Made by a program: the position numbers and the translations under genes. Below, piece by piece: positions 9,201 through 63,618 of a DNA stretch of 64,000 nt. The notes below the pieces were generated by a model. The model saw nothing but the letters and a program-made list of their open reading frames with translations. It was not told the DNA's origin and searched no databases. Origin of the DNA: an uncultured Bacilli bacterium (GTDB taxonomy: Bacteria; Bacillota_I; Bacilli_A; RF39; UBA660); contig CANRDD010000001.1 in NCBI GenBank assembly GCA_947629305.1, positions 6,311-70,310 of the forward strand, in the 5' to 3' direction. How positions within the stretch are numbered: position 1 is the stretch's first letter; the number at the start of each line of letters is the position of its first letter.

Positions 9201-9433
9201 GTAATTTTAGCTATTTTAATTTTAATTTGTTTATTTATATATTCATTATAATTTGGTACACCTTTATATGTTTTTTTAGAAATATCAATTTCATTTAAAA
9301 CTAATTTTTCATAATCTTCCCTCGAAATATTTAAATACTTTGTCGATATATATATTTTATTAATAACAGGCATAATTATTTCATATATTTGTTTTGAATC
9401 TAATTCTTGAATATTATATAAATTTAATTCCAT
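6251..9433 (-). CDS. RpoD-family (group 1/2, SigA-like) sigma factor with unusual ~200-aa N-terminal domain and ~450-aa C-terminal extension of five tandem ~75-aa degenerate region-4-like repeats plus a terminal region-4-like domain
   Basis: Region 1.2 ([12 protein letters not shown]); region 2 ([17 protein letters not shown]...[19 protein letters not shown]); region 3; region 4.2 ([30 protein letters not shown]); then repeats [71 protein letters not shown] x5; C-terminal [45 protein letters not shown]. Confidence 0.85.
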
Positions 9434-15680: not shown

Positions 15681-15681
15681 A

Positions 15682-16218
15682 TTACTTTCTTCTTTCTAAT
15701 TTAGGAACATATTCTCTTTCAATCCGTGATTCTGTGGCTTTAACTTGTCCTAAATATTTACCCTTATATTCAATAGAATTATCCCCGATTAAAGGAAAAT
15801 AATATAAACGGCCGATAGGCATATTAGGATAAACTTTGGTTGGATAAGTGCAAACAATTTCAAGTGTCCATGTTCCTTCAAAACCATGATCACCAAATCC
15901 CGCGGTTACATGAATTTCCATGCCAAGAGCAGCTAGCTTATCAATACCACCTAGTAAAGGAACAAAATTATAAGTTTTAGTATATTCATTGGTTCTCCCT
16001 AAATATAATTTACCTGGCTCTAAAACTAAACCTTCTTCAGGAATAAGAATTTTTTGGGTAGGATTACTTTTCTTAATATCTAAAAAGGGTTCAGTATATA
16101 CTTTTAAATCATTAGCAAGTGTTACATTAAGATAATTTTCTCCTAACGTATCTTCATTTACTTTATAAATATCGATATTATGAGGATAATTAGCTATTAT
16201 TTCATTTCTACTTAACAT
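15682..16218 (-). CDS. dcd: dCTP deaminase (single dUTPase-fold domain)
   Basis: IHVTAGFGDHGFEGTWTLEIVCTYPTKVYPNMPIGRLYYF matches the Dcd core including the catalytic Glu (TLEI); the SSxR motif is replaced (GGIDKLAALG); 178 aa. Confidence 0.65.
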   Translation of the reverse strand: MLSRNEIIANYPHNIDIYKVNEDTLGENYLNVTLANDLKVYTEPFLDIKKSNPTQKILIPEEGLVLEPGKLYLGRTNEYTKTYNFVPLLGGIDKLAALGMEIHVTAGFGDHGFEGTWTLEIVCTYPTKVYPNMPIGRLYYFPLIGDNSIEYKGKYLGQVKATESRIEREYVPKLERRK

Positions 16219-16232
16219 AATTATTACTTCCT

Positions 16233-17420
16233 TTAAATCTTTCTGGTTAAAGATATACCTTCTTTAAATTTACATTCAGATGGACAAGTAAAATTAGGAA
16301 ATGTACAACGAGATCCATGCGAATATTTAACTAATTCCGCATATATTTTTTGATCATTAGGGCTTTTTGATGCCTTTAAAGTATTAACATATTTTGTTAA
16401 TACTTCTTTTGTAATTTGCATAACTTCTAACTGAGGTGCTGTACAAATTCTTTCAAATAATTTTAAAATAAAATCTTCATATTTACCTGTTTCATTAACA
16501 TTTACGAGTAACCCTTGAGGATAATCCGATAAACTTGATATATCTTTTAACCATTCTTGGGATAAATAATCATTATCTCTAATAATAATTGGTACATAAT
16601 ATTCTTTTGTTTCTTTTAATGATAAAGAATAATCTAAAGTTCTATGTCTTAATAAATCGGCTAAAGCAACAAATGTCGCATCATAATTGACTGAGTAACT
16701 CCGGCTAAAGTGATCATCATAAGTATTATCATCTTGAATTAAAGAAAAATGTCTATTACGATAATCTTTAATATCTTGATCAATAAAACCTGTACTTAAT
16801 AAAGCCTTTTGAAACTCTTTTAAATAAGGCTTTAATTCTTGAATTAAAGGATTATTTGTATCTTCATTTAACATTTTAATTGTAAAATCATAAATATAAT
16901 TTAATTGTCTAAATGATGTTGTATATTTTAATTTAGTTCGCATAAATACTGACAACAAATAACGGGCATTTTCTTTAGCTTTTTTATCTATCATAGCTGG
17001 AGTTAAATAAACATTATCAGGATAAACCTTAGTTATTTCTTCTTTAAATATTTTATGCCATTTACGATATAATTCATTTTCTTCTTCTGTTCCAAACATT
17101 GTTGTATAACGTCCTGATTTTTCCGAAGTATTATATTCATGTTCATTATTAATCATCATCGCTAATAACTTGGGAATATTTTCAAAATATATTTGAATTG
17201 TATCATGCCCAAAGACCGAATGATGTCTATTTTTTTTATTACCATCTGCCCTATTTAACGTTTTTTCAATTGGTTCTTTTAATATTTCATCATAATTTTT
17301 AGCCGTATAACAAATATTTGCTGAATGTCCCCCGTTGATTTCTAAATCTTTTAAACTAGTTTCCTTGATTATTTCTTCATCTGTTGTAGTTATACCTACT
17401 ACTTTTGCATTTATTTCCAT
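16233..17420 (-). CDS. ThyX-like (flavin-dependent thymidylate synthase family) divergent paralog. RHR motif not conserved. Extra ~170-aa C-terminal region
   Basis: Alignable to the ThyX core: HHSVFGHD (cf. GHETPFEH) ... NNEHEYNTSEKSGRY (cf. FRHRIASYNELSGRY). SGRY is conserved but RHR reads NEH. Likely start MEINAKVVG at 17420 with GGAGG RBS; longer ORF to 17492 is possible. Confidence 0.5.
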   Translation of the reverse strand: MEINAKVVGITTTDEEIIKETSLKDLEINGGHSANICYTAKNYDEILKEPIEKTLNRADGNKKNRHHSVFGHDTIQIYFENIPKLLAMMINNEHEYNTSEKSGRYTTMFGTEEENELYRKWHKIFKEEITKVYPDNVYLTPAMIDKKAKENARYLLSVFMRTKLKYTTSFRQLNYIYDFTIKMLNEDTNNPLIQELKPYLKEFQKALLSTGFIDQDIKDYRNRHFSLIQDDNTYDDHFSRSYSVNYDATFVALADLLRHRTLDYSLSLKETKEYYVPIIIRDNDYLSQEWLKDISSLSDYPQGLLVNVNETGKYEDFILKLFERICTAPQLEVMQITKEVLTKYVNTLKASKSPNDQKIYAELVKYSHGSRCTFPNFTCPSECKFKEGISLTRKI

Positions 17421-17546
17421 TATTCCTCCCATAGCCCCCTTTTTAGTTCTAAATCTACTTAAAATTTTATCAAATATATCACTAAAAATCAATTCCCTTA
17501 GGAATTTTTTTCCAAAACTATTCCATAATAAAAAAGGTGATATCTT

Positions 17547-20493: not shown

Positions 20494-21603
20494 CTAATCT
20501 TTCTTTATTTTAATATTAATATGATATTCGTGAGGTAAATTAGTTTCTTCTACCTTAACTTTATCACTATCTAAATGTAAACCACGAATAGTTTGAATTA
20601 TATTACTTAAAAAATCATCTTTTTCAATAGCTTTATCATCTTTAACAGAAGGGATAATAAAATCATCTAACATTTCAATATTATCACTATTATCTAATGT
20701 TATTTTAACTTCTTCTGGTTCTTGATATATAACTGGTTCTTCTTCCATTTTCATATTAGCAGCTTCATCTTCTAAAAAGTTAAAAAATTTATTTGGCATA
20801 ACTTCTGCAGCATCATACATATCTTTAGGATTTATTATTTTTACTTCTTCTGGTTCTTTAATATCATTATCCAGCAAAGTTTCTTCTTTTTTAACTTCTA
20901 TTGGTTTTATATCTTGGGCATTTTTTAACATTGAAGCAAAATCAATAGCTTCAACAGTTGGCACATCACTTGCCCTATTTTCCTCATTCATCTTTTTTAT
21001 TTCCTCCTCTAAAACACGTACAGTCATTCTTTCATTTATAATTCGATCTAAAAGTTCATTTTGTTTTTTCTCATCTTTAACTTTAAGTAAGCTTCTTGCA
21101 TGTCTTTCACTAATTTTTTCTTGCATAACAGCATCTTGAACTTTTTCACTTAAATTAAGTAAACGTAATTTATTAGAAATAGCGGCTTGCGAAAGTCCCA
21201 TTTTCTTAGCTAATTCTTCTTGGGTCATTCCTTCTTTATCAAGTAAAGTTTTATAAGATCTAGCTTCTTCAATCGCGGACAAATCTTTTCTTTGAATATT
21301 TTCCACGATAGCTACTTCCGCGCTTGTGTTATCATCCATTTCAGTGATAATCGCAGGTACTGATACTAAACCAGCCATAGTCGCAGCTTTATAACGTCTT
21401 TCCCCCGCGATTATTTCGTACTTTTCGCCAACTTTTCTTAAAACAAGTGGTTGAATAATTCCATGTTGTTTAATTGAACTAGCTAATTCTTGTAAAGAAC
21501 TTTCATCAAAAGAAAGCCGAGGTTGAAAACGATTTGGTATTATATCTTCAATCGGCACTTGTATTACTTTTGTATCTTTTTCTTTATTATCCAACTTAAT
21601 CAA
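20494..21603 (-). CDS. ParB/Noc-family chromosome partitioning / nucleoid occlusion protein (ParB N-domain + HTH) with long acidic C-terminal extension; no adjacent parA
   Basis: IPNRFQPR...GIIQPLVLR...YEIIAGERRYKAA (ParB box); HTH MTQEELAKKMGLSQAAISNKLRLL; ISERHARSLL; sits directly after rsmG like noc in B. subtilis. Confidence 0.8.
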   Translation of the reverse strand: MIKLDNKEKDTKVIQVPIEDIIPNRFQPRLSFDESSLQELASSIKQHGIIQPLVLRKVGEKYEIIAGERRYKAATMAGLVSVPAIITEMDDNTSAEVAIVENIQRKDLSAIEEARSYKTLLDKEGMTQEELAKKMGLSQAAISNKLRLLNLSEKVQDAVMQEKISERHARSLLKVKDEKKQNELLDRIINERMTVRVLEEEIKKMNEENRASDVPTVEAIDFASMLKNAQDIKPIEVKKEETLLDNDIKEPEEVKIINPKDMYDAAEVMPNKFFNFLEDEAANMKMEEEPVIYQEPEEVKITLDNSDNIEMLDDFIIPSVKDDKAIEKDDFLSNIIQTIRGLHLDSDKVKVEETNLPHEYHINIKIKKD

Positions 21604-29889: not shown

Positions 29890-30070
29890 GGGGATTGTGG
29901 ATAAAATGTGGATAACTATCAACACAATTAACAACATTAAACCAACAACATGTTTATAACTTATGGCATATGGGGATACTGTTAGTTTAACAATTGGGGA
30001 TTTTGTTGATATATGGCTTTTTTTAAGCTTTTAAGGCTAATTCAATTGGGGATAACTCTGGGGATAATTA
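29890..30070. promoter_or_regulatory. oriC DnaA-box cluster upstream of dnaA
   Basis: Two perfect TGTGGATAA boxes (29896-29904, 29907-29915) plus degenerate boxes tGGGGATAc (29971), tGGGGATAA (30047, 30060) in the rpmH-dnaA intergenic region. Confidence 0.8.
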
Positions 30071-30136: not shown

Positions 30137-31510
30137 GTGAGGTTTAACTTGAAGACAAGCACTCAAGAGTTATTCAACAAATTTTTAACAGAAATAGCAA
30201 GTAAAGTATCACAAAATGCTTATGTTATTTGGTTTTCGCAACTTGAACCTCTATCGATAAATAATGATGTATTTACGATAAAAGTCCCAATGGAAGTTCA
30301 TAAACAAATCTTAAGTGAAACTTATCATGATACAATAGATGCCATCTTTTTTTCCTTAACAGGAATAAATTATACCTTTAAATATGTAACAGAAGAGGAA
30401 ATAGAAGTTACGCCAGAAGTAACTTTGCCTGAATTACCTCAGGTAAAAAAAGAAGAAGAATGGGATACTCATTTAAAAAAAGAATATACTTTTGATAACT
30501 ATGTGGTTGGTAACTCCAATAGATTAGCTTTTATTGCCGCTAGGGCGGTAGCGGAGGCTCCAGGCACAATTCATAATCCTTTGTTTATCTATGGACGAAG
30601 TGGTCTTGGCAAAACCCATTTGATGCATGCCATTGGTAATTACATTACGGAAAATAGTAATAAAAAAGTTTTATATACAACAAGTAATGAATATCGAAAT
30701 GACTTCACGGGTATTGCTTCCATTAACAATGGTGTTAGTAAAATGAATTATGCTAACGAGTTTAAAAATAAATACCGAAATGTGGATGTTTTAATTATTG
30801 ATGATATTCAGTTTTTAACTGATGCAGAGAAAACCCAACAAGAATTTTTTCATACCTTTAATGAACTTCATCAAGCTAATAAACAGATAATTATTAGTAG
30901 TGATCGAAGTCCTGATGATTTAAAGAAAATAGAGGAAAGACTTAGAAGTCGTTTTATGTGGGGATTACCTGTGGATATTTATCCACCTGATTTTAATCTA
31001 AGATGTGATATTATAAGAGCAAAAATTAAAAATACAAGTATTGAAAATAAATTAAATTCTGATGTTATTGAATATATTGCTAATTCTTGTGTTAATGATG
31101 TTAGGCATATTGAAGGAACTATTAGAAGATTACTTGCTTATACAGCCATGATGGTTCCCGATAAAATAACTTTAGACTTTGCCATTGAAGCATTAAAAGA
31201 TTATGTTAATACCAATATATATATCAACAATTCGATAGCTTCAATTCAAAATGCTGTGGCCGAATATTTCAAAATATCAGTAGAAGATTTAAAAGGGAAA
31301 AGAAGAACAAATAATGTTGTTAGACCAAGGCATATTGCTATGTATTTATGCCGAGTGGAAACTGATGAACCTCTTATTAAAATAGGGCTTGAGTTTGGAG
31401 GAAGAGATCATTCCACTGTATCAACAGCGATAGATAAAATAAAAGAAGAATTAGAGACTGATGATAACTTGAATAAAATGTTGAAAGAAATAAAACATAA
31501 GTTACAATAA
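30137..31510 (+). CDS. dnaA: Chromosomal replication initiator protein DnaA
   Basis: AAA+ Walker A GRSGLGKTHL; Walker B VLIIDDIQF; C-terminal DNA-binding domain (HSTV...); GTG start at 30137 or TTG at 30149. Confidence 0.95.
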   Translation: MRFNLKTSTQELFNKFLTEIASKVSQNAYVIWFSQLEPLSINNDVFTIKVPMEVHKQILSETYHDTIDAIFFSLTGINYTFKYVTEEEIEVTPEVTLPELPQVKKEEEWDTHLKKEYTFDNYVVGNSNRLAFIAARAVAEAPGTIHNPLFIYGRSGLGKTHLMHAIGNYITENSNKKVLYTTSNEYRNDFTGIASINNGVSKMNYANEFKNKYRNVDVLIIDDIQFLTDAEKTQQEFFHTFNELHQANKQIIISSDRSPDDLKKIEERLRSRFMWGLPVDIYPPDFNLRCDIIRAKIKNTSIENKLNSDVIEYIANSCVNDVRHIEGTIRRLLAYTAMMVPDKITLDFAIEALKDYVNTNIYINNSIASIQNAVAEYFKISVEDLKGKRRTNNVVRPRHIAMYLCRVETDEPLIKIGLEFGGRDHSTVSTAIDKIKEELETDDNLNKMLKEIKHKLQ

Positions 31511-33514: not shown

Positions 33515-33958
33515 ATGAATTATATTATTAATGGTAATACTTTATGGATTGAAAGAAAGGAAAATAAAATTTATATTAATGAAATGGGATTTAATAAAGT
33601 AATATACAATGGCAATGTTAGAGAAATAATAAATAAAAGTTGCCTTTACTATGGATCTTCTTATCATGGTCGTATTCAAGGATCATCTTTGATTCTGGAA
33701 GCTAATTATAAACTACCCATTATTATCAAAGACAATGCCGAGTTAATTGTTTTTCCCCTTGTTACTTCAACATTAAAAGATCCTATTTGGTTTATCTATA
33801 ATAATATAAAAGAATATCATCAAATTAAAAAAAATAAAGTCTTGGTGGAATTTACAAATGGGCAAACAGAAGCTTTTAATGTCTCGTTTTATACCTTTAA
33901 TCAACAAATATTAAAAAGTAGTCGTTTGTATGTGGTTAGCAAAACCAGAAATGGGTAA
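33515..33958 (+). CDS. ComK-family competence transcription factor homolog
   Basis: KSCLYYGSSYHGRIQGS...KLPIIIKDNAELIVFPLVTS...PIWFIYNNIKEY...VLVEFTNGQTEAFNVSFYTFNQQ aligns with the B. subtilis ComK core (SCRFFGSSYAGRKAG...KPPIMVDPSNQIFLFPTLSS...GWISHVHVKEF...VTFSNGKTMELPISYNSFENQ). Confidence 0.7.
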   Translation: MNYIINGNTLWIERKENKIYINEMGFNKVIYNGNVREIINKSCLYYGSSYHGRIQGSSLILEANYKLPIIIKDNAELIVFPLVTSTLKDPIWFIYNNIKEYHQIKKNKVLVEFTNGQTEAFNVSFYTFNQQILKSSRLYVVSKTRNG

Positions 33959-37124: not shown

Positions 37125-39590
37125 ATGGATAATAAAGATAGATTAGAAGAAAATAATATAGTTAATGAAATTGAAAGTTCTTTTATTGATTATTCCGTAA
37201 GTGTTATTACTTCAAGAGCTCTTCCTGATTTAAGAGATGGTTTAAAACCTGTACATAGAAGAATTCTTTATTCAATGTATGAATCTGGTTATACACCAGA
37301 TAAACCACATAAAAAAAGTGCACGTATAGTCGGGGATGTCATGGGGAAATATCACCCTCATGGTGACTCATCTATTTACGAAGCTATGGTTAGAATGGCT
37401 CAAGATTTTAATTACCGTTATATGTTAGTTGATGGGCATGGAAATTTTGGTAATATTGAAGGTTATGGTGCCGCAGCGATGCGTTATACCGAATCAAGGC
37501 TTTCCAAAATCTCTTTGGAATTATTAAGAGATATTAATAAAAATACAGTAGATTTTGGACCAAACTTTGATGAATCAGAAAAAGAACCTTTTACTTTACC
37601 AAGTCGTTTTCCTAATATTTTAGTAAATGGTACCATGGGTATCGCAGTTGGTATGGCCACGAATATCCCTCCACATAACCTTGGTGAAGTCATTGATGGT
37701 TGTATTGCATATATTGATAATCCTGATATTGATACCTTAGGATTAATGACTTATATAAAAGGACCTGACTTTCCAACTGGTGGTATAATTCTTGGTAACT
37801 CAGGGATCAAGCAAGCATATGAAACAGGCCGAGGAACTATAACGATTAGAAGTAAAGCCACAATTGAAGAAAAAAACGGTCGTCAATATATTGTTGTTGA
37901 TGAAGTACCTTATGGTGTAAATACTTTAGAATTAAAAAATAAAGTTGCCGAATTAGTTCATAATAAAGTTTTAGATGGTATTTCTGACTATCATACCGAC
38001 TTAAAAGATGGCGTTAAAATAACAATTACGTTGAAAAAAGATGCCAATGCCCAAGTTGTGTTAAATAATTTATATAAACATACAGCATTTCAATCTAATT
38101 TTGGGGTAATATTCTTAATGCTTGATAAAGGTGTTCCTAAAACTTTAGGACTTAAGGATATTATTTCTAAATATGTTGATTATCAAAGAGAAGTTATTAT
38201 TAAAAGAACCCAATTTGATTTAGATAAAGATGAAAAGAGAGTTCATATATTAGAAGGTTTAAAAATTGCTTTAGATAATATTGATGAAGTTATTAAAATA
38301 ATTCGGGGAGCTAATACGGATGAAGAAGCTAAAGCTAATTTAACAAGCCATTATGGCTTAAGTGATGCCCAAACTAGTGCCATTTTGGAAATGCGTTTAA
38401 GACGGTTAACTGGTTTAGAAAGAGATAAAATAGAATCAGAATTACAAGAATTATTAAAAGAAATAGATCGTTTAAGAGCAATTTTAGCCGATCCTAAGAA
38501 GATTGATGAAGTAATTAAAAATGAAATGTTAGAAATAAAGAATAAATATGCTGATGAAAGACGAACTAAAATTGATATGACCGCGGTGGATTATATCGAA
38601 GATGAATCTTTAATTCCAAATGAAGATATTTTAGTAGTGTTAACTAATAAAGGTTACATTAAGAGAACTATTTCAGATACTTTCAAAGCTCAAAGAAGAG
38701 GTGGAGTTGGAATTAAAGGTATTTCAACAAATGATGAAGACTTTGTAGAAAATATGATAAATCTTAATTCTCATGATTATATCTTATTCTTTACAAATAA
38801 AGGTCGTGTTTATAGATTAAAAGGATATGAAATACCAGAATTTAGCAGACAGTCTAAGGGACTGCCAATTATCAATCTTTTATCAATTGGTAAAGATGAA
38901 AAAATAAGCAGTATTTTAAAAATTAATAAAAACGAAGAAAATAAATTTTTATTATTTGCTACGCGTAATGGTATTGTTAAGAAAACTTCTATTCAAGAAT
39001 TTGATAACATAAGAAATAATGGTAAAATATGCATTACATTACGTGATAATGATGAATTAATTGATGTTAAGAAAACTAATGATAATGATTTAATCTTATT
39101 AGGATCTAGTGCGGGACGAATGGTAAAATTCCCTGAAAAAGAAATTAGAAATATGGGACGTACGGCATCTGGTGTTCGTGGTATTAATTTAGAAGATGCT
39201 AAATGTATATGTTGTGAAGTTGTTAAAGATGATGATACCATATTATTAGTAACAGAAAAGGGTTACGGTAAACAAACATATGTTTGTGATTTTAGACAAA
39301 CAAGAAGAGGCAGTAAAGGTGTTAAAGCCCTTAATGTTACTGAAAAAAATGGTAATCTAAGCGCAATAAAAATAGCTAGTTTTGATAAAGATGTTATTAT
39401 TATGACGGATTCTGGTATGACCGTTAGAATGGCTATTGATCAAATATCAATATTAGGTCGTGTTACTCAAGGAGTTCGATTAATAAATCTTAAAGATAAT
39501 CAAAAAGTAGCAACAATTAGCATTGTGGATAAAGATAATGTTGATGAACAACCTCCCGAAAATGTAGACAATATAGAAAATGAAGAATAA
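37125..39590 (+). CDS. gyrA: DNA gyrase subunit A
   Basis: Active-site region [17 protein letters not shown]; [14 protein letters not shown]; C-terminal beta-pinwheel repeats; 821 aa. Confidence 0.95.
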
Positions 39591-39620
39591 TGTTTCACGT
39601 GGAACATTATTTTTTTTTGT
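39588..39620 (+). terminator. Rho-independent terminator of gyrA whose stem is a parS palindrome
   Basis: aATGTTTCACGTGGAACATt hairpin followed by ATTTTTTTTT immediately after the gyrA stop. Confidence 0.6.
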
Positions 39621-40058
39621 ACAATTATATAAATTTACCAAAACAACTAAATAAACCAATGTTCCACGTGAAACATGACATAAATTAATCAAATTAATAT
39701 ATCAAAATAGCTGAATAAATCAATGTTTCACGTGAAACATGACATAAATTAATCAAATAAACATATTAAAATAACTGAATAAATCAATGTTCCACGTGAA
39801 ACATGACATGAATTAATTAAATTAATATATTAAAACAACTTATTAAATCAATGTTCCACGTGAAACATGACATAAATTAATCAAATTAATATATCAAAAT
39901 AGCTGAATAAATCAATGTTCCACGTGAAACATGTATAAATTAATCAAATAAACATATTAAAATAACTAAATAAATCAATGTTCCACGTGAAACATGACAT
40001 GAATTAATTAAATTAATATATTAAAACAACTTATTGAATCAATGTTCCACGTGAAACA
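39591..40058. repeat. Tandem array of eight parS (ParB-binding) sites at ~64-bp periodicity embedded in a ~65-bp/195-bp higher-order direct repeat
   Basis: 16-mers matching the Firmicute parS consensus TGTTNCACGTGAAACA at 39591 (TGTTTCACGTGGAACA), 39660, 39724 (TGTTTCACGTGAAACA), 39788, 39852, 39916, 39979, 40043 (TGTTCCACGTGAAACA). Flanks are three alternating unit variants (A-B-C-A-B-C). Confidence 0.8.
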
Positions 40059-40071
40059 TTATGAAATGATG

Positions 40072-40100
40072 TTGACAATTATCGGAGAGTTTGTTAATAT
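40072..40100 (+). promoter_or_regulatory. Sigma-A type promoter for the SRP RNA (TTGACA-17-TAATAT)
   Basis: ttgaca 40072-40077; 17-nt spacer; taatat 40095-40100 (or tataat 40098-40103); 14 bp downstream of the last parS. Confidence 0.55.
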
Positions 40101-40103
40101 AAT

Positions 40104-40182
40104 GATGTGCAACAAGGATGCTGTAAACTGGTCAGAATCGGAAGATAGCAGCCACATCAGCCTCTGCTTGTGTGCACTTTTT
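40104..40182 (+). ncRNA. ffs: Small signal recognition particle RNA (4.5S/scRNA-like, ffs/scr)
   Basis: GC-rich hairpin GTGCAACAAGG...CTGCTTGTGTGCAC. Apical region GGTCAGAATCGGAAGATAGCAGCC matches the SRP RNA domain IV consensus (GUCAGGUCCGGAAGGAAGCAGC). Ends in TTTTT. Lies in the tadA-dnaX neighbourhood where scr sits in Bacillus. Confidence 0.6.
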
Positions 40183-40195
40183 ATATGGTGATAAA

Positions 40196-40650: not shown

Positions 40651-42318
40651 ATGAATTATAAAGTATTATATCGAAAGTATCGTCCGGATAGTTTTGATAC
40701 TTTAGTAGGACAAAAACCAATCGTGGATATTCTTAAAAATTCCATTAAAGAGGGCAAAATAGCCCATGCTTATATGTTTTCAGGTCCAAGAGGAACTGGA
40801 AAAACAAGCACAGCGCGAATTTTAGCAAAGGCTATTAATTGTTTAAACAATGAAGATGGTATTGCCTGTGGAAAATGTGTTAATTGTTTAAATTTTAACG
40901 ATAGTCCCGATATTATTGAAATAGATGCCGCTTCTAATAATGGTGTAAATGATATTCGGGAATTAATTAACAACATTAAAATTATGCCAACATCATTAAA
41001 ATATAAAATTTATATTATTGATGAAGTTCATATGTTAAGCGAAAGTGCCTTTAATGCCTTGTTATTAACCTTAGAAGAACCACCGGAACATGCAATTTTT
41101 ATTTTAGCAACAACTAATTTAGAAAGGGTTCCTATCACGATTCTTTCTAGGTGTCAAAAGTATGATTTTAAGCGAATATCTTTAACTGACATAGTGAATC
41201 ATTTAAAAGTCATATGTGAAAAGGAAAACATTAAATATACTGATGAAGCTCTTAGTGAAATTGCAACTCTTGCTGAAGGGGGATTAAGAGATGCATTAAG
41301 TATATTAGATCAATTATCTAAAATAGATAAAGATATTACTTTAGATTTAGTTATAAAAGAAATTGGAACTATTTCTAATAAAAAAATAAATGATTTAGTT
41401 AATGCATTAGGTAATAGGAAAATTGATGAAGTTGTAGGTTTTATTAATGAATTTAGAAATATTAATTTAAATTATAAAGTTGTTATTAAAAAAATAATTG
41501 ATGTTCTGGCTAATAATGCTGTTGATGTTTTAAAAAATGGTTCTAAAAATAATTTAGATTATGATGATTATAAAAATTTGATCTTGGAATTAAATGATAT
41601 TATTAACAAAATAGATATTAGTATTGATCCTTATATTTTAATTGAAATGATTATGCTAAAATATGTTGATAATTCAGAAAAAAAATTAAATAATTTTGAA
41701 AAAGTTATAATTCCTGCGAAAAAATCAGAAGAAAGTATATTACCCAAAGAAAAAAATATTTCCCAGGAAATATTTTTAGACAAAGAAATAAAAAATGAGG
41801 ATAAAATTACAAAAAATATTTCCCAGGAAATAAATTTTCATCCTGAAACGTCTGTTGATGATAAAAAAGTTAACTTAAGAATAAATAATTGTTTTACTTC
41901 AGCATCAAAAGATGAATTAAATAACGTAAAAGAAAAATGGTTGAAATTTTTTGAAGAAGCTCCAACGAATATAAAAGGTTTAATTACAGATACTTCGCCA
42001 GTGGCTTCTTCTAAAGATTATGTTATTTTAGAAACAACAATAAAACATAAAGATATAGAGTTAAATAAACAATTAAAATTAATTGAAAATAGCTATAATA
42101 CGTTATTTTCTAATGAACAAAAATTAATTTTTCTTGATTCTGATAAATGGCTTAATGAAAAAAATAAATATATAGTTAATTTGAAAAAAGGATATAAATA
42201 TACTTTAATGAATGAAGAAGAATTAGAGAAAAGTAATGTAAATAATAATTTTAATAAAGAAAATATTGAAGAAATTGCCAATAATATCTTTAATCATGAT
42301 AAAATAGAATTGCAATGA
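40651..42318 (+). CDS. dnaX: DNA polymerase III subunit gamma/tau
   Basis: YRPDSFDTLVGQ; Walker A GPRGTGKTS; zinc module CGKCVNC; Walker B IYIIDEVHML; SRC motif; internal KNISQEI duplication in the linker. Confidence 0.9.
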   Translation: MNYKVLYRKYRPDSFDTLVGQKPIVDILKNSIKEGKIAHAYMFSGPRGTGKTSTARILAKAINCLNNEDGIACGKCVNCLNFNDSPDIIEIDAASNNGVNDIRELINNIKIMPTSLKYKIYIIDEVHMLSESAFNALLLTLEEPPEHAIFILATTNLERVPITILSRCQKYDFKRISLTDIVNHLKVICEKENIKYTDEALSEIATLAEGGLRDALSILDQLSKIDKDITLDLVIKEIGTISNKKINDLVNALGNRKIDEVVGFINEFRNINLNYKVVIKKIIDVLANNAVDVLKNGSKNNLDYDDYKNLILELNDIINKIDISIDPYILIEMIMLKYVDNSEKKLNNFEKVIIPAKKSEESILPKEKNISQEIFLDKEIKNEDKITKNISQEINFHPETSVDDKKVNLRINNCFTSASKDELNNVKEKWLKFFEEAPTNIKGLITDTSPVASSKDYVILETTIKHKDIELNKQLKLIENSYNTLFSNEQKLIFLDSDKWLNEKNKYIVNLKKGYKYTLMNEEELEKSNVNNNFNKENIEEIANNIFNHDKIELQ

Positions 42319-45085: not shown

Positions 45086-45788
45086 AAATGATTTATATGA
45101 TTATCCTCATCGTTACATTTATCAAGATACGGATGGTTTTAAGTTTTCTATAGATTCTCTTCTTCTTGCGGAATTTGTTAAACTTCCCAAAAAAGATGGC
45201 ATAATATTGGATATGTGTACAGGTAATGCTCCCATTCCTTTAGTTTTATCAACAAAAACAAAAAATAAAATTTATGCTTTTGAAATTCAAAAAGCTGTTT
45301 ATGATTTAGCCAAGGATTCTGTAAGCTTAAATGGTTTAGATGATCAAATTGAAATTTATAATAATGATGTTTTAGATATCGATAAAATATTTCCTGGGAA
45401 ATATTTTGATATTATAACTTGTAATCCCCCTTATTTTGTAACAACATCAACTAGCCAACTTAATAAAAATGATTATTTAACAATTGCTCGGCATGAAGTT
45501 AAAATTAAATTAGATGATATTTTTAGAATAGTTAGCACCCATTTAAAAGAAAATGGGCATTTTTACATGGTTCATCGCCCCGAAAGATTAGATGAAATTA
45601 TTTTAACTAGTGAAAAATATAAATTAAAAATGAAAGTTTTCCAAGTTATCACAACCAAGAATAATATTCCATTCATGATTCTTTGTCACTTTCAAAAACA
45701 TGCTAAACATGGGATAAGATTTAATCCTATTTTAGATATAAGTAACTTAAAAAGTTATCAAAATATTTTTTCCAAGGAGGATAAGTAA
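45075..45788 (+). CDS. tRNA (adenine-N6)-methyltransferase YabB/TrmN6-like SAM-dependent methyltransferase
   Basis: ILDMCTGNAPIPL SAM motif; NPPY motif (ITCNPPYF); position after ricT (yabA apparently absent). Confidence 0.7.
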   Translation: MIVKNDLYDYPHRYIYQDTDGFKFSIDSLLLAEFVKLPKKDGIILDMCTGNAPIPLVLSTKTKNKIYAFEIQKAVYDLAKDSVSLNGLDDQIEIYNNDVLDIDKIFPGKYFDIITCNPPYFVTTSTSQLNKNDYLTIARHEVKIKLDDIFRIVSTHLKENGHFYMVHRPERLDEIILTSEKYKLKMKVFQVITTKNNIPFMILCHFQKHAKHGIRFNPILDISNLKSYQNIFSKEDK

Positions 45789-49551: not shown

Positions 49552-50067
49552 TTGAAATCTACAGGTGTTACAAGAAGAATTGATGAACTTGGAAGAATTG
49601 TTATTCCCAAAGAAATTAGACGTAATTTAGGTATTAGAGATGGGGAAACATTAGAAATATATACAAGTGAGGAAGGAATATTTTTACAAAAACATTCTAT
49701 TTTACATAATTATGCTGAAATAGGAACTAAGTTATGTGAAATAATTAGTTCTGTTTTAAACATCGAAATTATTTTAACTGATCGGGAAAAAGTTATTTCT
49801 TCAACTCATAATAATCACATAATAGGTAAAAATATTCCTCCTGAATTTATTAAACTTATTGATGGAAGAGAAACTTTAAATAGTGAATTTGAAATGGCTG
49901 TTAATATTGATACTGAACAAATAAAAGGTTATTTTAATATTTGTCCTATTATCTCTTCCATTGATTCATTAGGTTTAGTTATCATTGTTAATAATAAACC
50001 AAATAATATGCAAGATATAGCTAAATTAATAGCTAAAATTATGGCTGAAAAATTAGATATATATTAA
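49552..50067 (+). CDS. spoVT: Stage V sporulation protein T (AbrB-type swapped-hairpin N-domain + GAF-like C-domain)
   Basis: MKSTGVTRRIDELGRIVIPKEIRRNLGIRDGETLEIY (AbrB/SpoVT N-domain); 171 aa; directly after mfd as in Bacillus/Clostridium; TTG start. Confidence 0.8.
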   Translation: MKSTGVTRRIDELGRIVIPKEIRRNLGIRDGETLEIYTSEEGIFLQKHSILHNYAEIGTKLCEIISSVLNIEIILTDREKVISSTHNNHIIGKNIPPEFIKLIDGRETLNSEFEMAVNIDTEQIKGYFNICPIISSIDSLGLVIIVNNKPNNMQDIAKLIAKIMAEKLDIY

Positions 50068-57772: not shown

Positions 57773-58789
57773 ATGGATTATGAAAAAATAGCTAATTTTA
57801 TCCAAAGTAACCGAAGGAAAATGGGGTTAACCCAAGAAGAACTCGCGGATTTAATTCCCATTGGCCGTGGTGCAGTCAGTAAATGGGAAAGAGCTATAAC
57901 TATCCCAGATCCTTTAGTTTTATTAAAATTAAGTGAAATATTTAATGTTAGTATTAATGAAATATTATTAGGTGAAAAAATAAATAATCATAATAAAGAA
58001 GAACTTAATAAAATAACACTAAGTCTTTTTAATAGTATTAATAATAGTAAAAAAAGAATTAAAATATTATTAATAAGTATCTTAATTATCTTATTTTTAT
58101 TTTTTAGTTATTATTTTTTTAATTCTTATAAACAAGTTAAAATATATACAATTAATACAAATAACGATTATTTTAAAATAGAAGATGCGTTATTTATTTA
58201 TACAAGAAATAAAAGTTATTTTAAAATAGGTAAATTACATATTAATAATAATTCTGTCATTATGACTAATGTTGGTATTTATTATAAAGATCAAGATCAA
58301 AAAGAACATTTATTATTTAGTATAAATGGGGATGAAGATATCGTTTATGTTGATTTAAATAATAAAATATTTAAGAAAAAAAATTTAAAACAAATATTAA
58401 ATAATATGTATATAAGATTAATTTATAATGAAGTATTAGAAAAATCATTTAAATTATATTTAGAAGAAGATTATATTAATAAAGAATTATTTAATAAAGT
58501 TAATAATCAAAATATAGAATTTAAAGATTTATTTTTAATGAATAAAGAATATTATATAAATTATATTAAAACTAAATTATATCAAAATAAAAATAATTGT
58601 TTTTATCAAGATCAAGATTTTAAATTTAATTATTTAAATAATTATATTGAATTAATAAATAAGGAAGAAAAATGGCAATATGATGTAATAAATAATAAGT
58701 TATTATTAGAAAAGAATAATAAAATAAAAGAATGTTCTAATAATTGTTCTAATTATTTTTATATAAAATTAGAAGAAGCTTTAACTTAA
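57773..58789 (+). CDS. Membrane-anchored XRE-family HTH regulator (HTH_3 N-domain, single TM, large C-terminal domain)
   Basis: MDYEKIANFIQSNRRKMGLTQEELADLIPIGRGAVSKWERA; TM KILLISILIILFLFFSYYFF; start ATG 57773 with GGTGA RBS (ORF extends upstream to 57740). Confidence 0.65.
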   Translation: MDYEKIANFIQSNRRKMGLTQEELADLIPIGRGAVSKWERAITIPDPLVLLKLSEIFNVSINEILLGEKINNHNKEELNKITLSLFNSINNSKKRIKILLISILIILFLFFSYYFFNSYKQVKIYTINTNNDYFKIEDALFIYTRNKSYFKIGKLHINNNSVIMTNVGIYYKDQDQKEHLLFSINGDEDIVYVDLNNKIFKKKNLKQILNNMYIRLIYNEVLEKSFKLYLEEDYINKELFNKVNNQNIEFKDLFLMNKEYYINYIKTKLYQNKNNCFYQDQDFKFNYLNNYIELINKEEKWQYDVINNKLLLEKNNKIKECSNNCSNYFYIKLEEALT

Positions 58790-58860
58790 GATGAGCTTAT
58801 AAAGTCCTTTCTTTTTTTAATATTAAAGATTAATCTAAAGTTAGGAAAGGAGGGATATAT

Positions 58861-59718
58861 TTGAAAAAAGGAATTATTATTACCATTATTATTTTAATTA
58901 TAAGTATTTCAATAGGTTATATTTTCTTAAAGAAAAAAGATTATAATCCAGGTTATACTGTTTATGAAAAGAAAGCTAGTATAGTTAAAGATGATGGTTG
59001 GTATTATTATTTTTATTTAAATGGCGTAAAAGAAAATAATCAAGGAGAAGTAAAAGATATTAATTATTTCTTTGATGCTATTAATTTAAAATATGAAACT
59101 TTACCTGAATATGGTTATATGGATGAAACAATTAATGAAAATGATGAAAAGGTTAAAATATTTAGACCAAGTTATCCATCTTTAAGTAATTCTTTAAAAG
59201 AAAAAGATGGTATTAAAGAAAGTGAAGAAATATTAATGATAGATAATTATTTTGATCAAAAGAATTTTACCCATTCTATTACTATTAATGATCTAAGTGA
59301 TTTAAAAGTTTATAATTTTGATAAAGAATTAATTGTGGAATTATTTAATAAAATGATTGAAAAAGAATATTCTTCTCATATAACACATTTTACTGTTTAT
59401 CAGGGTGAATATAGGCATGATGAAGAAAAAGATGGGTATATGTGGCATACAAGTGTCTTACCATTTCGAACAGGTTTAGATGCTGTTTATATTGATATTA
59501 TTTATCATAATCAAACTTATTTATCAGATTTAATTAAAGAAAATAAAGCTAATGCTAAACAAAGAGAAATATATGAAAATATAGAAAAAATAGAAAAATA
59601 TATTATTAGTAATCAAACCGTGGAATTAGAAGATACTTTTAAAGAATTAAGTAATAATAAAGATTACCAAAGATTATTTAAAATATTAGCTACATATGAT
59701 GATGGATGGATAGACTAA
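58861..59718 (+). CDS. Hypothetical membrane-anchored protein
   Basis: TTG start with AAGGAGGG RBS; N-terminal TM IIITIIILIISISIGYIF; no recognisable domain. Confidence 0.45.
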   Translation: MKKGIIITIIILIISISIGYIFLKKKDYNPGYTVYEKKASIVKDDGWYYYFYLNGVKENNQGEVKDINYFFDAINLKYETLPEYGYMDETINENDEKVKIFRPSYPSLSNSLKEKDGIKESEEILMIDNYFDQKNFTHSITINDLSDLKVYNFDKELIVELFNKMIEKEYSSHITHFTVYQGEYRHDEEKDGYMWHTSVLPFRTGLDAVYIDIIYHNQTYLSDLIKENKANAKQREIYENIEKIEKYIISNQTVELEDTFKELSNNKDYQRLFKILATYDDGWID

Positions 59719-59759
59719 AGAAAATAACTATGTTATAATTTAGTCAAGGTGGTAAAGAA

Positions 59760-60725
59760 ATGAATAAAGTTTTAAAAATAGTTCTTATATCGATAAGTGT
59801 TATTGTTTTAGTTATTGCTCTTGATACAATTGGCGCAAAAGTTTTTAATCATAGTCCTATTATAAGTATTAGAAAAAATATAGATGGAGGAACAACTGAT
59901 TATCTTAAATCAGGCCTATTTGTTAATTATTATCATTGTGTTAATGGCGAAGAAAAAACCGTTTATAAAAAGACTAAATATTCTTGTCCATTGGAAGAAA
60001 AAGCTGATTCATCTTTAGATAATATCTATCGTAATTCTTTGCTAGAATATGATATTCACAAACTATCAAATGATTATACTTTTAATGATGCTAAAGATGA
60101 TAATTATTTAGCTATTGGTCATGATAATATTTATAATGAAAATAATATTAATATTTTCTTAGAAAATTATCAAAAACAAAAAGATGCTTTTTTAAGAATA
60201 GCTAATGTAACAATTGAAGGAGATTTAATTCTAACTGATTTAATTTATAATTCTCAAGAAGATTTAATTTATGTTGTAATTGATAATACCAGAGATACTT
60301 TTAGTAAAGGAGAAATATCTTTTAAAACATATCAAAATCTTAAAGTAAATGATACAAACTGGGTTTTAACTAATGATAATGATAGTTATACAATTGATTC
60401 TCTTTATAAAAATATAGCTTGTTATAAAGAACAAGTTGGTGCTTATGTTACAAGTGAAAAAATAGTTCCTGAAGAAATAAGTATTGAAAAATTAGTTAAA
60501 GATGATTTAAAAAATATTAAATATTCTTATGGTTTAAAAAATTCATTAGGACATATAGCTTTAATTGTTAATTCTCCTAATAAAGCAACAATGAAAGAAA
60601 TAGAAGAAGTTTTAAATAAAAAATATAGTGATTTAAAAAAAGTAGAATTAAATGATAATTTTTATATATATGTTTTTAATGGAGATTCTAAGTTAGATTT
60701 AAGTAATTTGAATAATGCTTGTTAG
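59760..60725 (+). CDS. Hypothetical secreted/membrane-anchored protein
   Basis: N-terminal TM/signal KIVLISISVIVLVIAL; no recognisable domain. Confidence 0.45.
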   Translation: MNKVLKIVLISISVIVLVIALDTIGAKVFNHSPIISIRKNIDGGTTDYLKSGLFVNYYHCVNGEEKTVYKKTKYSCPLEEKADSSLDNIYRNSLLEYDIHKLSNDYTFNDAKDDNYLAIGHDNIYNENNINIFLENYQKQKDAFLRIANVTIEGDLILTDLIYNSQEDLIYVVIDNTRDTFSKGEISFKTYQNLKVNDTNWVLTNDNDSYTIDSLYKNIACYKEQVGAYVTSEKIVPEEISIEKLVKDDLKNIKYSYGLKNSLGHIALIVNSPNKATMKEIEEVLNKKYSDLKKVELNDNFYIYVFNGDSKLDLSNLNNAC

Positions 60726-60760
60726 AAAAATGCAAACTATAAAAGGTTTGCATTTTTAAG
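60726..60760 (+). terminator. Rho-independent terminator
   Basis: aaAAATGCAAACtataaaagGTTTGCATTTTT: 10-bp stem, 8-nt loop, T-run. Confidence 0.65.
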
Positions 60761-60857
60761 ACTTAGCAACTAAATAGAGACAAAAAACAACTTAAAAGTG
60801 GTAGAATGCAACCAGTAGAAAGTTATAAAATATGGGCAAGAAAGAAGGAATAATATT

Positions 60858-62306
60858 GTGAATAATCAATTCGCGGAGAATTTAAAAAAAATAAGAAAGG
60901 ATCATCATTTATCCCAAGAAGATCTTGCTAGTGAACTTAATGTTTCAAGACAAGCTATATCCAAATGGGAATCATCTTTAGCTTATCCTGAGATGGATAA
61001 AATTATTGCTTTATGTGATAAATTTAATTTAAATATTGATGATTTATTACATCATGATATAAATGAAATAAAAAAAGAAGAAGAGGGAAAGAAGAAAGTA
61101 AATAAATTTATTGATGATTTTTTAAATTTTATTACTGATACTGTTAATTTATTTAGTAATATGGATTTTAAAAGAAAAATTAAATGTTTAATAGAACAAA
61201 TAATTATTATTACATTATTAATTATTTGTTCTAATATTATCGTTTATTTTAGTGATTATATCTTTAATAATATATTTAGTTTTTTACCTCATTTTAAAAT
61301 AAGTTTATTTATGTCTAGTTTATTTAATATAATCTCTATTATAATATGTGTTATATTTTCTCTTATTATCTTTATTCATGTCTTTAAAACAAGATATTTA
61401 GATTATTATAATAAGTATAAAAAAGAAATTAATTTAAATAATAATACTAATAAAGTAGTATTTAAAGATAAAGAAGAAAATATTATTATTAGAGATCCTA
61501 AACATAGTGAATATCGTTTTATTAATGGTTTATTAAAATTCTTTATATTTCTTATAAAATTATTTTCTTTAATGATAGCTATATTTATTAGTTTTATAAT
61601 TATTCTTTTATTTATTTGTTTAATAGTATCTTTTTTACTATATAAAACTAAGTTATTTTTTCTAGGTTTAATATTAGCTATTATATCTTCTATTGTTTTA
61701 ATAACTATTATCTTTTTACTAATATTAAATTTTATTTTTAATAGAGAAAATGATAAAAAGAAAATGATTTGGAGTATTATCTTTTCTCTTGGTTTATTTG
61801 GCATTGGCTTAGGTTTTATATTTGTTGGTTCTTTAAATTTTGAAATGTTAAGTAATCCTAAAGAATTATATAGAACTAAAACAAGTGAATATGTAATGCA
61901 AGATGATTTATTTCTTTTAATAGGAAATGTTAATTATATTGAAAAAGATATTCCTAATATTGAAATAACATATGAGTATAATAAATATTATGATTTAATT
62001 GAATATAAGGATAAAGGAATAGATGTCTGGTTAGAATTAAATAATCCTTTTCCATTAATAAAAGAAGTTATTAAATATTTAAATAATAATAAAGTAATCA
62101 ATTTTACAAATAATATAACAATTAATGTTTATGCTTCAAAAGAAAATATTGCTATCTTAAAAAATAATTGGAATAGATATATTAATAATTTAGATGAAAT
62201 AGGAATAATGCAAGAAAATTATGAGAATAGGATTCAAGAATTAGAAGAACTTAATTATATATATCAAGAACAATTAGAAGAATATCGAGAATTATTAGAT
62301 AGATAA
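60858..62306 (+). CDS. Membrane-anchored XRE-family HTH regulator with multi-TM region and C-terminal coiled-coil
   Basis: LKKIRKDHHLSQEDLASELNVSRQAISKWESS; at least 5 hydrophobic helices; GTG start with AGAAGGAA RBS. Confidence 0.65.
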   Translation: MNNQFAENLKKIRKDHHLSQEDLASELNVSRQAISKWESSLAYPEMDKIIALCDKFNLNIDDLLHHDINEIKKEEEGKKKVNKFIDDFLNFITDTVNLFSNMDFKRKIKCLIEQIIIITLLIICSNIIVYFSDYIFNNIFSFLPHFKISLFMSSLFNIISIIICVIFSLIIFIHVFKTRYLDYYNKYKKEINLNNNTNKVVFKDKEENIIIRDPKHSEYRFINGLLKFFIFLIKLFSLMIAIFISFIIILLFICLIVSFLLYKTKLFFLGLILAIISSIVLITIIFLLILNFIFNRENDKKKMIWSIIFSLGLFGIGLGFIFVGSLNFEMLSNPKELYRTKTSEYVMQDDLFLLIGNVNYIEKDIPNIEITYEYNKYYDLIEYKDKGIDVWLELNNPFPLIKEVIKYLNNNKVINFTNNITINVYASKENIAILKNNWNRYINNLDEIGIMQENYENRIQELEELNYIYQEQLEEYRELLDR

Positions 62307-62362
62307 ACTATAGTGAAAAATTTTACTAAATATATAAAAATATTTCAGTATAATTATGCTAG

Positions 62363-63562
62363 ATGAAGCAGAAAATGATTAAAAGAGAACATTATTTAAA
62401 ACAAATAAGAGAATTTTATGATTCAGATTTAATTAAGATAATAACAGGCATAAGAAGATGTGATAAATCAGTTGTTTTAGAACAAATAATGACAGAAATA
62501 AAAAAGAAAAGTAAAAATATTATTTATCTTAATTTTGAAGATAAAAGAAATTTTAATACTATTAATACTAGTGATTTATTAATTCAATATGTAGATAAAC
62601 ATAAAGATAATAAGAGTAAATGTTATATTTTTCTTGATGAAATTCAAACTTTAGATAATTGGCAAGATGCTTGTAAAACTTTAAGATTAGATAATAATTC
62701 TCTTTTTATAACTGGTTCTAATTCGAAATTATTATCTAAAGAATTTACTAAAGAATTAAGTGGAAGATATGTATCTTTTCAAATAAGACCATTTGTTTAT
62801 AAAGAAATAAATGAATATATGAAAGAATTAAAAAAAGAATGTAGTATAACAGACTATCTTATCTGGGGAGGTTTTCCAAAAAGATTTGAATTTTCAAGTA
62901 CAGATGCCCAAATAAAATATTTAAATGATTTAGATAATACAATTGTTATAAATGATTTAATAAATCGTTATAAAATAAAAAAAGTAGCTTTATTTAAAAG
63001 TTTTGTTAATTATGTATTAAGATCTAATAGTAGGATTTTTTCAGCTAAATCTATTCATGATTATATAAAGGATAAAAATGAAAGTTGTTCTATTAATACG
63101 ATTATGAAATATTTAAATTATTTGGAAGAAGCATATATTATAGAAAGAGTAAAACAATATTCTTCTAAAGTAAATAGAGAATTAAATTATTATTATAAAA
63201 TATATAATGAAGATGTTAGTTTTAATTCTTTAAGATGTATAGATAATCATTATGATATATCACATAATTTAGAAAATATAGTTTATAATGAATTAATTTA
63301 TATGGGATATGATTTAAAAGTATTTATTAATAATGGAAAAGAAATAGATTTTATAGCTTCTAAAAATAATAAAACATATTATATTCAAGTAGCATACACT
63401 CTTAGTGAAGATAAGACATATAATAGAGAATTTAAAGCATTTAATAATTTAGATAATATAAATAAAAAGATAATTATTACAAATGATGATTTAGATTATT
63501 CTACTAGTTTAATAGAACATATTAAATTAAAAGATTTTTTACTTATGGAATCATTAGATTAA
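62363..63562 (+). CDS. COG1373-type AAA+ ATPase (DUF4143 family)
   Basis: P-loop-like ITGIRRCDKSVVL; Walker B YIFLDEIQ; overall architecture of predicted AAA+ ATPases with a C-terminal DUF4143-like region. Confidence 0.55.
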   Translation: MKQKMIKREHYLKQIREFYDSDLIKIITGIRRCDKSVVLEQIMTEIKKKSKNIIYLNFEDKRNFNTINTSDLLIQYVDKHKDNKSKCYIFLDEIQTLDNWQDACKTLRLDNNSLFITGSNSKLLSKEFTKELSGRYVSFQIRPFVYKEINEYMKELKKECSITDYLIWGGFPKRFEFSSTDAQIKYLNDLDNTIVINDLINRYKIKKVALFKSFVNYVLRSNSRIFSAKSIHDYIKDKNESCSINTIMKYLNYLEEAYIIERVKQYSSKVNRELNYYYKIYNEDVSFNSLRCIDNHYDISHNLENIVYNELIYMGYDLKVFINNGKEIDFIASKNNKTYYIQVAYTLSEDKTYNREFKAFNNLDNINKKIIITNDDLDYSTSLIEHIKLKDFLLMESLD

Positions 63563-63585
63563 AGACAAATTAGTCTTTTTTTTCT
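63562..63585 (+). terminator. Possible rho-independent terminator
   Basis: AAGACaaattaGTCTT followed by TTTTTTTT; short stem. Confidence 0.35.
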
Positions 63586-63618
63586 TATTTAAGAATAAAA
63601 TTTTTTAGGTGATTATTA

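Follow-up and report, generated by a model that had tools for sequence, protein, structure and literature searches.

In a 64,000-nucleotide (64-kb) stretch of DNA from an uncultured Bacilli bacterium (contig CANRDD010000001.1; the whole stretch is hereafter called the window), we identified eight perfect parS sites arranged in tandem between gyrA and ffs, the gene of the small signal recognition particle (SRP) RNA, ~9.5 kb from the replication origin. With good confidence, we take this array to be the organism's chromosomal centromere-like zone, where ParB would be loaded. The assignment draws on motif identity, non-random occurrence, origin proximity, clade-wide conservation with turnover of the spacers, and hairpin energetics, each of which was read directly from the sequences compared. 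It is further supported by the motif being the consensus used for Bacillus subtilis, Myxococcus xanthus and others (PMC4368675, PMC3899335, PMC7383237).

Architecture and conservation of the parS array

A search of the window with the pattern TGTTNCACGTGNAACA returned eight exact matches, all on the plus strand and all within positions 39591-40058, where 100 dinucleotide-preserving shuffles gave an expectation of 0. Every site agrees with the pattern at 14 of its 14 specified positions, and the 16-mer expected as the ParB target is TGTTCCACGTGAAACA. The sites start at 39591, 39660, 39724, 39788, 39852, 39916, 39979, and 40043, with start-to-start spacings of 69, 64, 64, 64, 64, 63, and 64 bp in that order. 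The original prediction, made from the DNA letters alone, had read the 16-mer as the parS consensus, repeated eight times at a period of 63-69 bp. Both points were borne out, the first by the eight exact matches to the canonical chromosomal motif, the second by the site starts and by Tandem Repeats Finder, which reported for positions 39640-40059 a period of 64 bp with 6.6 copies (88% matches) and a period of 191 bp with 2.2 copies (96%). The same prediction saw no other parS in the window, in agreement with our finding of three weak extra matches only when up to three mismatches were allowed elsewhere in the 64 kb. The coding potential of the array is confined to chance open reading frames (ORFs) of 32-70 aa.

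Unit-by-unit comparison showed that units 2 and 5 are 100% identical, units 4 and 7 98%, and units 3 and 6 94%, and the array is therefore a higher-order repeat of the form A-B-C-A-B-C, with a first block at 39660-39851 (192 bp) and a second at 39852-40042 (191 bp; 96% identical to the first). Unit 1 (69 bp) is divergent, with 68-71% identity to the other units. The predicted A-B-C-A-B-C pattern thus stands, with a block of 191-192 bp in place of the ~195 bp that had been suggested. The same cannot be said of the proposal that all sites lie on one face of the DNA. At 10.5 bp per turn the 64-bp period corresponds to 6.1 turns, a shift of ~34 degrees per unit, and sites 2-8 are spread over ~170 degrees, and site 1 is offset from site 2 by ~206 degrees. 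This drift, together with the periods of 36-105 bp found in relatives, rules out helical phasing as a design principle.

Site 1 begins one base past the stop codon of gyrA (37125-39590, plus strand; DNA_topoisoIV and GyrA C-terminal repeats), which abuts it. At the other end, a sigma-70-like promoter (40072-40100, plus strand; TTGACA-17-TAATAT with TG, a consensus match only) starts 13 bp downstream of the last site and precedes ffs (40101-40186, plus strand; RF00169, 53 bits), and the array indeed lies against the SRP RNA promoter, as had been noted. The origin is represented by a cluster of DnaA boxes at 29896-30067 (two perfect and two with one mismatch, at 29896, 29907, 30047, and 30059), upstream of dnaA (30137-31510), and the GC skew switches sign near 30 kb. 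Measured from the boxes, dnaA and the skew switch, the array is origin-proximal at ~9.5 kb, close to the ~10 kb of the original prediction.

A compact array of this kind had been considered unusual. Most bacteria, however, have their parS sites close together, and the dispersed arrangement of B. subtilis is exceptional (PMC8357415); in M. xanthus, 22 parS fall within 3 kb (PMC3899335). A genome pattern scan (one genome per species, at least three parS at a period of 46-76 bp) returned at least 120 loci, and among the loci listed tandem arrays are found also in Acidobacteriota, Bdellovibrionota, Flavobacterium, Lachnospiraceae, Patescibacteria, and others. Clusters of at least eight sites were observed at seven of the 120 listed loci, three of them from the clade of the window, and eight or more copies is thus the high end of parS arrays. 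A canonical ParB gene (R..G) lies within the 8-kb locus in ~40 of the 120, all from other phyla. In addition, the scan revealed two arrays 1.75 Mb apart on one chromosome (OZ245032.1, at ~0.41 and ~2.16 Mb; loci L045 and L065) of a Hyphomicrobiales metagenome-assembled genome (MAG), each with 8-9 perfect parS at a period of 49-50 bp.

The array shares the 16-bp palindrome, the origin-proximal position and the multiple copies with the clusters of M. xanthus, Caulobacter, Pseudomonas aeruginosa, and Corynebacterium glutamicum (PMC3899335, PMC4368675, PMC8357415, PMC7022226). It differs from these chromosomal clusters in being a regular tandem repeat with higher-order structure, in having no parAB operon nearby, and in its location between gyrA and ffs with the first copy doubling as a predicted terminator stem; it is also denser than the M. 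xanthus cluster, with one site per 64 bp against ~140 bp. The Spo0J/parS system of B. subtilis has the identical consensus and the same neighborhood (dnaA-dnaN-recF-gyrB-gyrA ... tadA-dnaX-recR), but its eight to ten parS (the cited papers differ) are scattered over ~0.75 Mb (PMC8357415), whereas all sites of the window fall in one 470-bp array. Moreover, soj-spo0J follow noc in B. subtilis, while the noc locus of the window is without them. In architecture the array resembles sopC of the F plasmid, where 12 direct repeats of 43 bp each contain a 16-bp inverted repeat bound by SopB (PMC3177203); both consist of head-to-tail direct repeats with one 16-bp palindromic site for a ParB-family protein in each. 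The resemblance is architectural only, since the window has 64-bp units in 7-8 copies, its motif is chromosomal parS and not the SopB box, and the array is chromosomal, in core-gene synteny, with no adjacent partition operon and no plasmid match. Of the features of a plasmid centromere, the array thus shows the tandem repeats with an inverted repeat, but not the location on a plasmid or phage-plasmid beside its own parA/parB.

The loci listed from the genome scan include at least 18 species-level genomes of low-GC MAG contigs labeled 'Bacilli' (one record is titled Clostridium sp. CAG:594), whose GyrA is 60-75% identical to that of the window. In these relatives, the gyrA-ffs-tadA-dnaX zone contains 3-15 perfect parS, most often in the gyrA-ffs interval. 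Array units are near-identical within a species, while the spacers are unalignable between species, and periods of 36, 51, 53-55, 60, 63-64, and 74-76 bp were observed (36-105 bp overall). The part of the unit that is constant between species comprises the 16-mer and one or two flanking bases; with repeat unit and period both variable, conservation is limited to the 16-mer.

Since this sample had been chosen for parS, a second sample of 80 metagenome loci was assembled by GyrA homology alone, comprising 67 clade loci (GyrA at least 68% identical) and 13 outgroup loci (54-59%). Look-ups of exact matches to the ParB-like protein and GyrA of the window returned nothing, and the closest metagenome relative has a GyrA 77% identical over its full length, or 82% over a partial match. 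Fifty-one of the 67 clade loci were informative, with at least 600 bp of sequence downstream of gyrA, and in 50 of these 51 at least one perfect parS is found no farther than 2.5 kb from the gyrA stop. In all, the clade loci hold 225 perfect parS in 127 kb of slot and one in the other 924 kb; the 13 outgroup loci hold none. These counts are the reason why we regard the gyrA-ffs slot as a fixed centromere-like locus of the clade and not as a dispersed repeat. A site kept at an orthologous locus amid unrelated spacers is, in addition, the pattern expected of purifying selection. In each of the 14 relatives with a contig long enough to include ffs, this gene adjoins the parS cluster or sits within it.

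Copy number varies from 1 to 15 across relatives, and regular arrays were a minority in the GyrA-chosen sample, where 2-9 irregularly spaced sites were most common. Many clade contigs stop within ~200 bp downstream of gyrA (L146, L148, L149, L150, L155, L160, L163, L176, L181, and L185), some of those ending near gyrA after two parS at 35-36 or 105 bp. Short-read assembly has probably broken at the tandem array in these cases, and arrays are then under-counted. Two syntenic loci with GyrA 61-75% identical to the window are tagged as a Methanobacteriaceae archaeon and Muribaculaceae (L086 and L099) and are almost certainly mis-binned Bacilli contigs. In several relatives (L043:991-1135, L093:4244-4355, L154, and similar), three perfect parS with a period of 48-69 bp lie within the coding region of dnaX, at +1883 to +1979 past the gyrA stop.

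The Noc-like protein and the search for a parS reader

The window has a single ParB-family gene (20494-21603, minus strand), which encodes a 369-aa Noc-like protein with ParB_N and HTH_ParB domains and a GERR box, a short N-terminus and a long acidic linker. The gene adjoins rsmG, where noc sits. It had been referred to as parB in the original prediction, a name not supported by its specificity residues, which are Q139/K145/N150/R167 (Q-K-N-R) and not the R-x-x-G of ParB, nor by its best scores, which are against Noc. Its best structural matches are Noc (7NFU, 194.7 bits) ahead of Spo0J (6SDK, 175.5 bits), and the best NCBIfam model is nucleoid_noc (TIGR04285) with 277.3 bits, below the cut-off of 315; the generic parB_part model follows with 187.7 bits.

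Four positions set the binding specificity in this family, R-T-A-G in ParB, with R173 invariant in parS-specific variants, and Q-K-K-R in Noc (Jalal et al., PMC7383237). Base 1 is recognized as A by Q173 and base 6 as C by R201, with one permissive lysine at 179 or 184, which is reported to suffice for specificity toward the Noc-binding site (NBS), and position 201 is mostly T or S in variants of dual specificity (PMC7383237). The window protein has three of the four Noc residues Q173, K179, K184, and R201, with N at 184, and by this published code (PMC7383237) it is predicted to prefer NBS and not parS. Q-K-(T/S/N/A)-R, with Q173 and R201 invariant, is found in the 120 closest homologues listed, and the same set occurs in almost every one of the 150 nearest representatives of 50%-identity clusters (median 448 aa; full-length subfamily members are about 330-775 aa). 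N-terminal to the PNRFQPR box, the window protein and the 150 representatives have only ~12-16 residues, and the window ORF is not extendable upstream. There is therefore no room for the membrane-targeting helix of Noc or for a ParA-stimulating peptide, and no N-terminal amphipathic membrane-targeting helix was found in the window protein. We assign it on these features to a large, apparently uncharacterised Noc-like subfamily without a membrane-targeting segment. Compared with the Noc-NBS system of Bacillales, the protein is alike in adjoining rsmG, in Q173/K179/R201 and in being closest to Noc structures; it differs in the missing N-terminal segment, in scoring below the NCBIfam cut-off for Noc, in the N/S/T/A at position 184, and in the long acidic linker (proteins of 360-775 aa).

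ParB and ParA genes were sought with Pfam and NCBIfam in almost all ORFs of at least 100 aa in the window (a few at the right-hand end by NCBIfam only; gyrB and two ORFs on the opposite strand inside larger genes were left out), and by tblastn with Spo0J. Four sets of results weigh against the array being a ParB loading zone. Firstly, no parS-type ParB (R173/G201 class) and no ParA is encoded in the 64-kb window, where we found neither a deviant Walker-A motif nor a tblastn match to a Soj query. Secondly, a second ParB-family gene or ParA is absent beside the Noc-like gene in four relatives, and canonical ParB/ParA is absent within 10 kb of gyrA in the 80 metagenome loci (tblastn, Spo0J). Thirdly, the sole ParB-family protein present is the one predicted from its four residues to prefer NBS. 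Finally, a single parS suffices in P. aeruginosa (PMC4368675), and with 1 to 15 copies among relatives the multiplicity itself may be neutral. The top 150 50%-identity representatives from a library search with the window protein are all of the Noc-like subfamily, and a ParB of the type R173...G/S/T/C201 was found neither in the window nor in the origin-proximal clade DNA examined, the clade members of the 120 listed genome loci included (tblastn, Spo0J), where the sole member is QKNR. Because the only ParB-family protein of the window is of the NBS type, we infer that a canonical parS-binding ParB, the reader of the array, is encoded elsewhere in the genome, outside the window. noc and parB are split in Staphylococcus aureus, which provides a precedent.

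We nevertheless favor the array as a centromere-like loading zone, at which we infer ParB binding, clamp loading and recruitment of the SMC condensin. At each of the eight 16-bp palindromes, a ParB dimer bound to cytidine triphosphate (CTP) would nucleate, close into a clamp, and slide to the flanking DNA, and eight loading sites within 470 bp would multiply the loading rate. The resulting dense ParB complex, ~10 kb from oriC, would mark the origin region for segregation and would also, if the analogy with other Firmicutes holds, load SMC condensin. A unit of parS plus spacer that recombined unequally or slipped during replication may have produced the array and kept it uniform, with duplication of the three-unit block as the putative latest event, and the target of selection would be the 16-mer and neither the spacer nor its length. 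The first copy would, in addition, be the stem of the gyrA intrinsic terminator.

The strongest alternative accepts the sites as real parS but takes their eight-fold tandem repetition to be a neutral outcome of slippage or unequal crossing-over, such that a site or two would be enough and neither copy number nor period is selected. The full identity of units 2 and 5 and the 96% identity of the 191-bp blocks indicate recent expansion, relatives have 1 to 15 sites in regular or irregular order, neither period nor helical phase is conserved, and the sufficiency of one parS in P. aeruginosa (PMC4368675) points the same way. Against this, multi-site clusters, typically of 2-9 sites, are kept in nearly all relatives, the clade holds three of the seven arrays with at least eight copies among the 120 listed loci, and arrays of unrelated units had separate origins in many clade species as well as in many phyla, which suggests recurrent benefit or at least tolerance. 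We consider neutral multiplication possible, at appreciably less than even probability.

A further set of observations concerns NBS. Two NBS-like sites tATTTCCCAGGAAATa, 60 bp apart (41758-41771 and 41818-41831), lie inside the 3' third of dnaX with one mismatch to the perfect NBS ATTTCCCGGGAAAT (0 expected), and a third such 14-mer is found at 45389-45402, on the strand opposite to the dnaX pair. Three copies in the window against none expected are consistent with an NBS reader and, as perfect NBS are found in relatives, add to the likeness to the Noc-NBS system. NBS sites in relatives also occur at positions consistent with dnaX. In three relatives (L024:3560-4050, L076:20-235, and L114:4520-4950), every repeat unit contains one perfect parS and one perfect NBS; composites were found also in L060, L064, L135, and L184, and parS and NBS alternate in these arrays over 3-8 units downstream of gyrA. 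In contrast to Noc-NBS systems, clade NBS are 18-fold concentrated in the parS zone (0.56 per kb vs. 0.03 outside), and of the 103 perfect NBS, 55 have a parS no more than 150 bp away, the start-to-start distance peaking at 28-30 bp. No NBS was found in the array spacers of the window itself, where a degenerate one was sought by eye only; the best gave 8/16, which is not meaningful in AT-rich DNA. We know of no description of interleaved parS/NBS arrays, although our literature search was not aimed at them directly.

Counts of the 16 symmetric palindrome variants at the two specificity positions gave 361 parS and 104 NBS in 1.28 Mb of clade DNA and 0 for each of the other 14 hybrid or symmetric variants. 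As pure parS and pure NBS occur without hybrids, two discrete binding specificities are maintained, and the counts fit two specific readers better than one promiscuous reader. Since some species interleave parS and NBS in each unit at ~29 bp, the gyrA-ffs spacer could be a composite centromere of two ParB-family CTP clamps loaded side by side, with a canonical ParB on parS and, on NBS, a Noc derivative that has Q-K-x-R and a long acidic linker but no membrane tether; in a radical version, the Noc-like protein would be the sole member and serve both motifs. We regard this composite reading as tentative and rather unlikely.

Less probable still, the Noc-like protein beside rsmG may be the clade's only ParB-family protein, occupying the parS array by dual or shifted specificity and acting as the centromere-binding protein. 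Such a role would account for the lack of a second ParB-family gene in the clade DNA examined, all of it origin-proximal, and for the interleaving of parS and NBS in single units in L024, L076, and L114; the protein is also not a canonical Noc, given that it lacks the long N-terminal region, has N/S/T/A for K184, scores 277 vs. 315 bits, and belongs to a separate large subfamily. However, none of the 120 closest homologues listed deviates at Q173 or R201, and nearly all of the 150 more distant representatives have both, whereas in the mutational scan parS-specific variants always have R173 and dual-specificity variants mostly T/S at 201 (PMC7383237). The occurrence of pure parS and pure NBS with no hybrids is, moreover, as for two separate readers. 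We therefore doubt this explanation and keep to the array as a loading zone for a ParB encoded outside the window.

The probable gyrA terminator and the neighboring genes

Site 1 with its flanks (39582-39618, plus strand) forms a predicted terminator-like RNA hairpin with a 15-bp stem, a 4-nt ACGU loop and a following U-run. The hairpin starts at the gyrA stop and has a dG of -13.3 kcal/mol (z -4.05; not matched by any of 200 shuffles); of the nine-T run, the 5' Ts are absorbed into the predicted stem, with UUUG after it. A stable stem-loop with a U-tract 3' of the stop codon is what a rho-independent terminator would look like. For copies 2, 4, and 8 the fold is no more stable than that of shuffled sequence (z +0.3 to +0.6), and site 1 is the sole copy oriented for a U-G wobble, and not a C-A mismatch, in plus-strand RNA. 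A generic terminator scan missed the hairpin because the scan requires three G-C pairs and the stem has fewer. Among 80 clade loci with sequence after gyrA (window included), the first parS lies within 40 bp of the gyrA stop in 42 and is directly followed by a T-run in 17, with hairpins of -13 to -19 kcal/mol; other clade loci have a separate terminator ahead of parS. The first copy thus probably doubles as the stem of the gyrA intrinsic terminator, a predicted role that is plausible and recurrent and that had been proposed in the original prediction.

The palindromes might instead be mainly transcriptional, acting as terminators, as insulators, or as operators through which an unrelated CACGTG-binding protein regulates ffs or gyrA, and have no part in segregation. 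The strong hairpin of site 1, the 13 bp between the array end and the ffs -35 hexamer, and the constant adjacency of the sites to ffs in relatives would be in line with such a role. Yet the T-run follows site 1 only and later copies fold like shuffled sequence, the match spans all 16 positions of the universal parS consensus, beyond the CACGTG core, and some relatives also have sites within the coding sequence of dnaX, an unlikely place for a terminator or operator. We consider a mainly transcriptional role very improbable. The related suggestion that ParB spreading could affect ffs expression is pure speculation, and the precedent is opposite: in B. subtilis, loss of Spo0J leaves the expression of parS-adjacent genes unchanged (PMC7022226).

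A dispersed or mobile repetitive element (of the miniature inverted-repeat transposable element or repetitive extragenic palindrome type, or a remnant of a plasmid or phage centromere) can be dismissed, since, for all the resemblance of the tandem direct repeats to plasmid centromeres such as F sopC (PMC3177203), the array is at a single location in 64 kb, between core genes in conserved synteny, with only one parS in 924 kb outside the slot in relatives, and a mobile origin is ruled out by searches that gave no match among 72,556 plasmids or 50,697 phages and three tandem parS in just nine of 2.9 million viral contigs. The concern raised with the original prediction, that the motif might prove a dispersed repeat unrelated to the origin, was likewise answered by the 225 sites inside the slot and one outside.

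The window is centered on the replication origin, with rnpA, yidC, jag, mnmE, mnmG, and rsmG on the minus strand and dnaA, dnaN, comK, recF, gyrB, gyrA, the array, ffs, tadA, dnaX, recR, and holB onwards on the plus strand, which is the Firmicute arrangement. Its GC content is ~25% and it encodes a class A penicillin-binding protein (PBP), and the organism is therefore a walled, low-GC member of the Bacilli. The PBP gene flanking the noc-like locus is adjoined by a cluster (14679-17492, minus strand) of two dCTP-deaminase-like proteins (333 and 178 aa) and a long 419-aa Thy1/ThyX-like protein, which may be a nucleotide-modification module. Two adjacent, unusually long proteins of 1060 and 515 aa (6251-9433 and 9459-11006, both minus strand) have sigma-70 regions 2-4 plus large extra regions and are followed by an 881-aa TPR protein. 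The ComK gene between dnaN and recF (33515-33958, plus strand), a SpoVT-like gene (49552-50067, plus strand), and a SpoIIR gene in relatives (L121:19543-20046) suggest competence or sporulation remnants in a lineage tagged 'Tenericutes' or 'Bacilli' in MAG records. At 58000-64000 the GC content falls to 0.19-0.20, compared with ~0.25 elsewhere, and several helix-turn-helix (Xre-type) proteins and ORFs without family matches are found; this region may be an island or prophage remnant.

Implications

The array itself is a textbook centromere motif, mainly a clean and extreme example whose value is comparative. It would mark a clade-wide fixed centromere beside gyrA and ffs across a large uncultured group of gut Bacilli, in which the fast turnover of units around a perfect 16-mer is a natural experiment on the number and spacing of ParB loading sites. 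In practical terms, such arrays probably break short-read assemblies just past gyrA, which matters for MAG completeness near the origin. The analysis also exposes a large Noc-like subfamily without a membrane anchor. Units combining parS and NBS would make the relationship between ParB and Noc testable with two short motifs and one or two proteins, and if the composite centromere exists in either version, Noc would have been repurposed from nucleoid occlusion to origin organisation.

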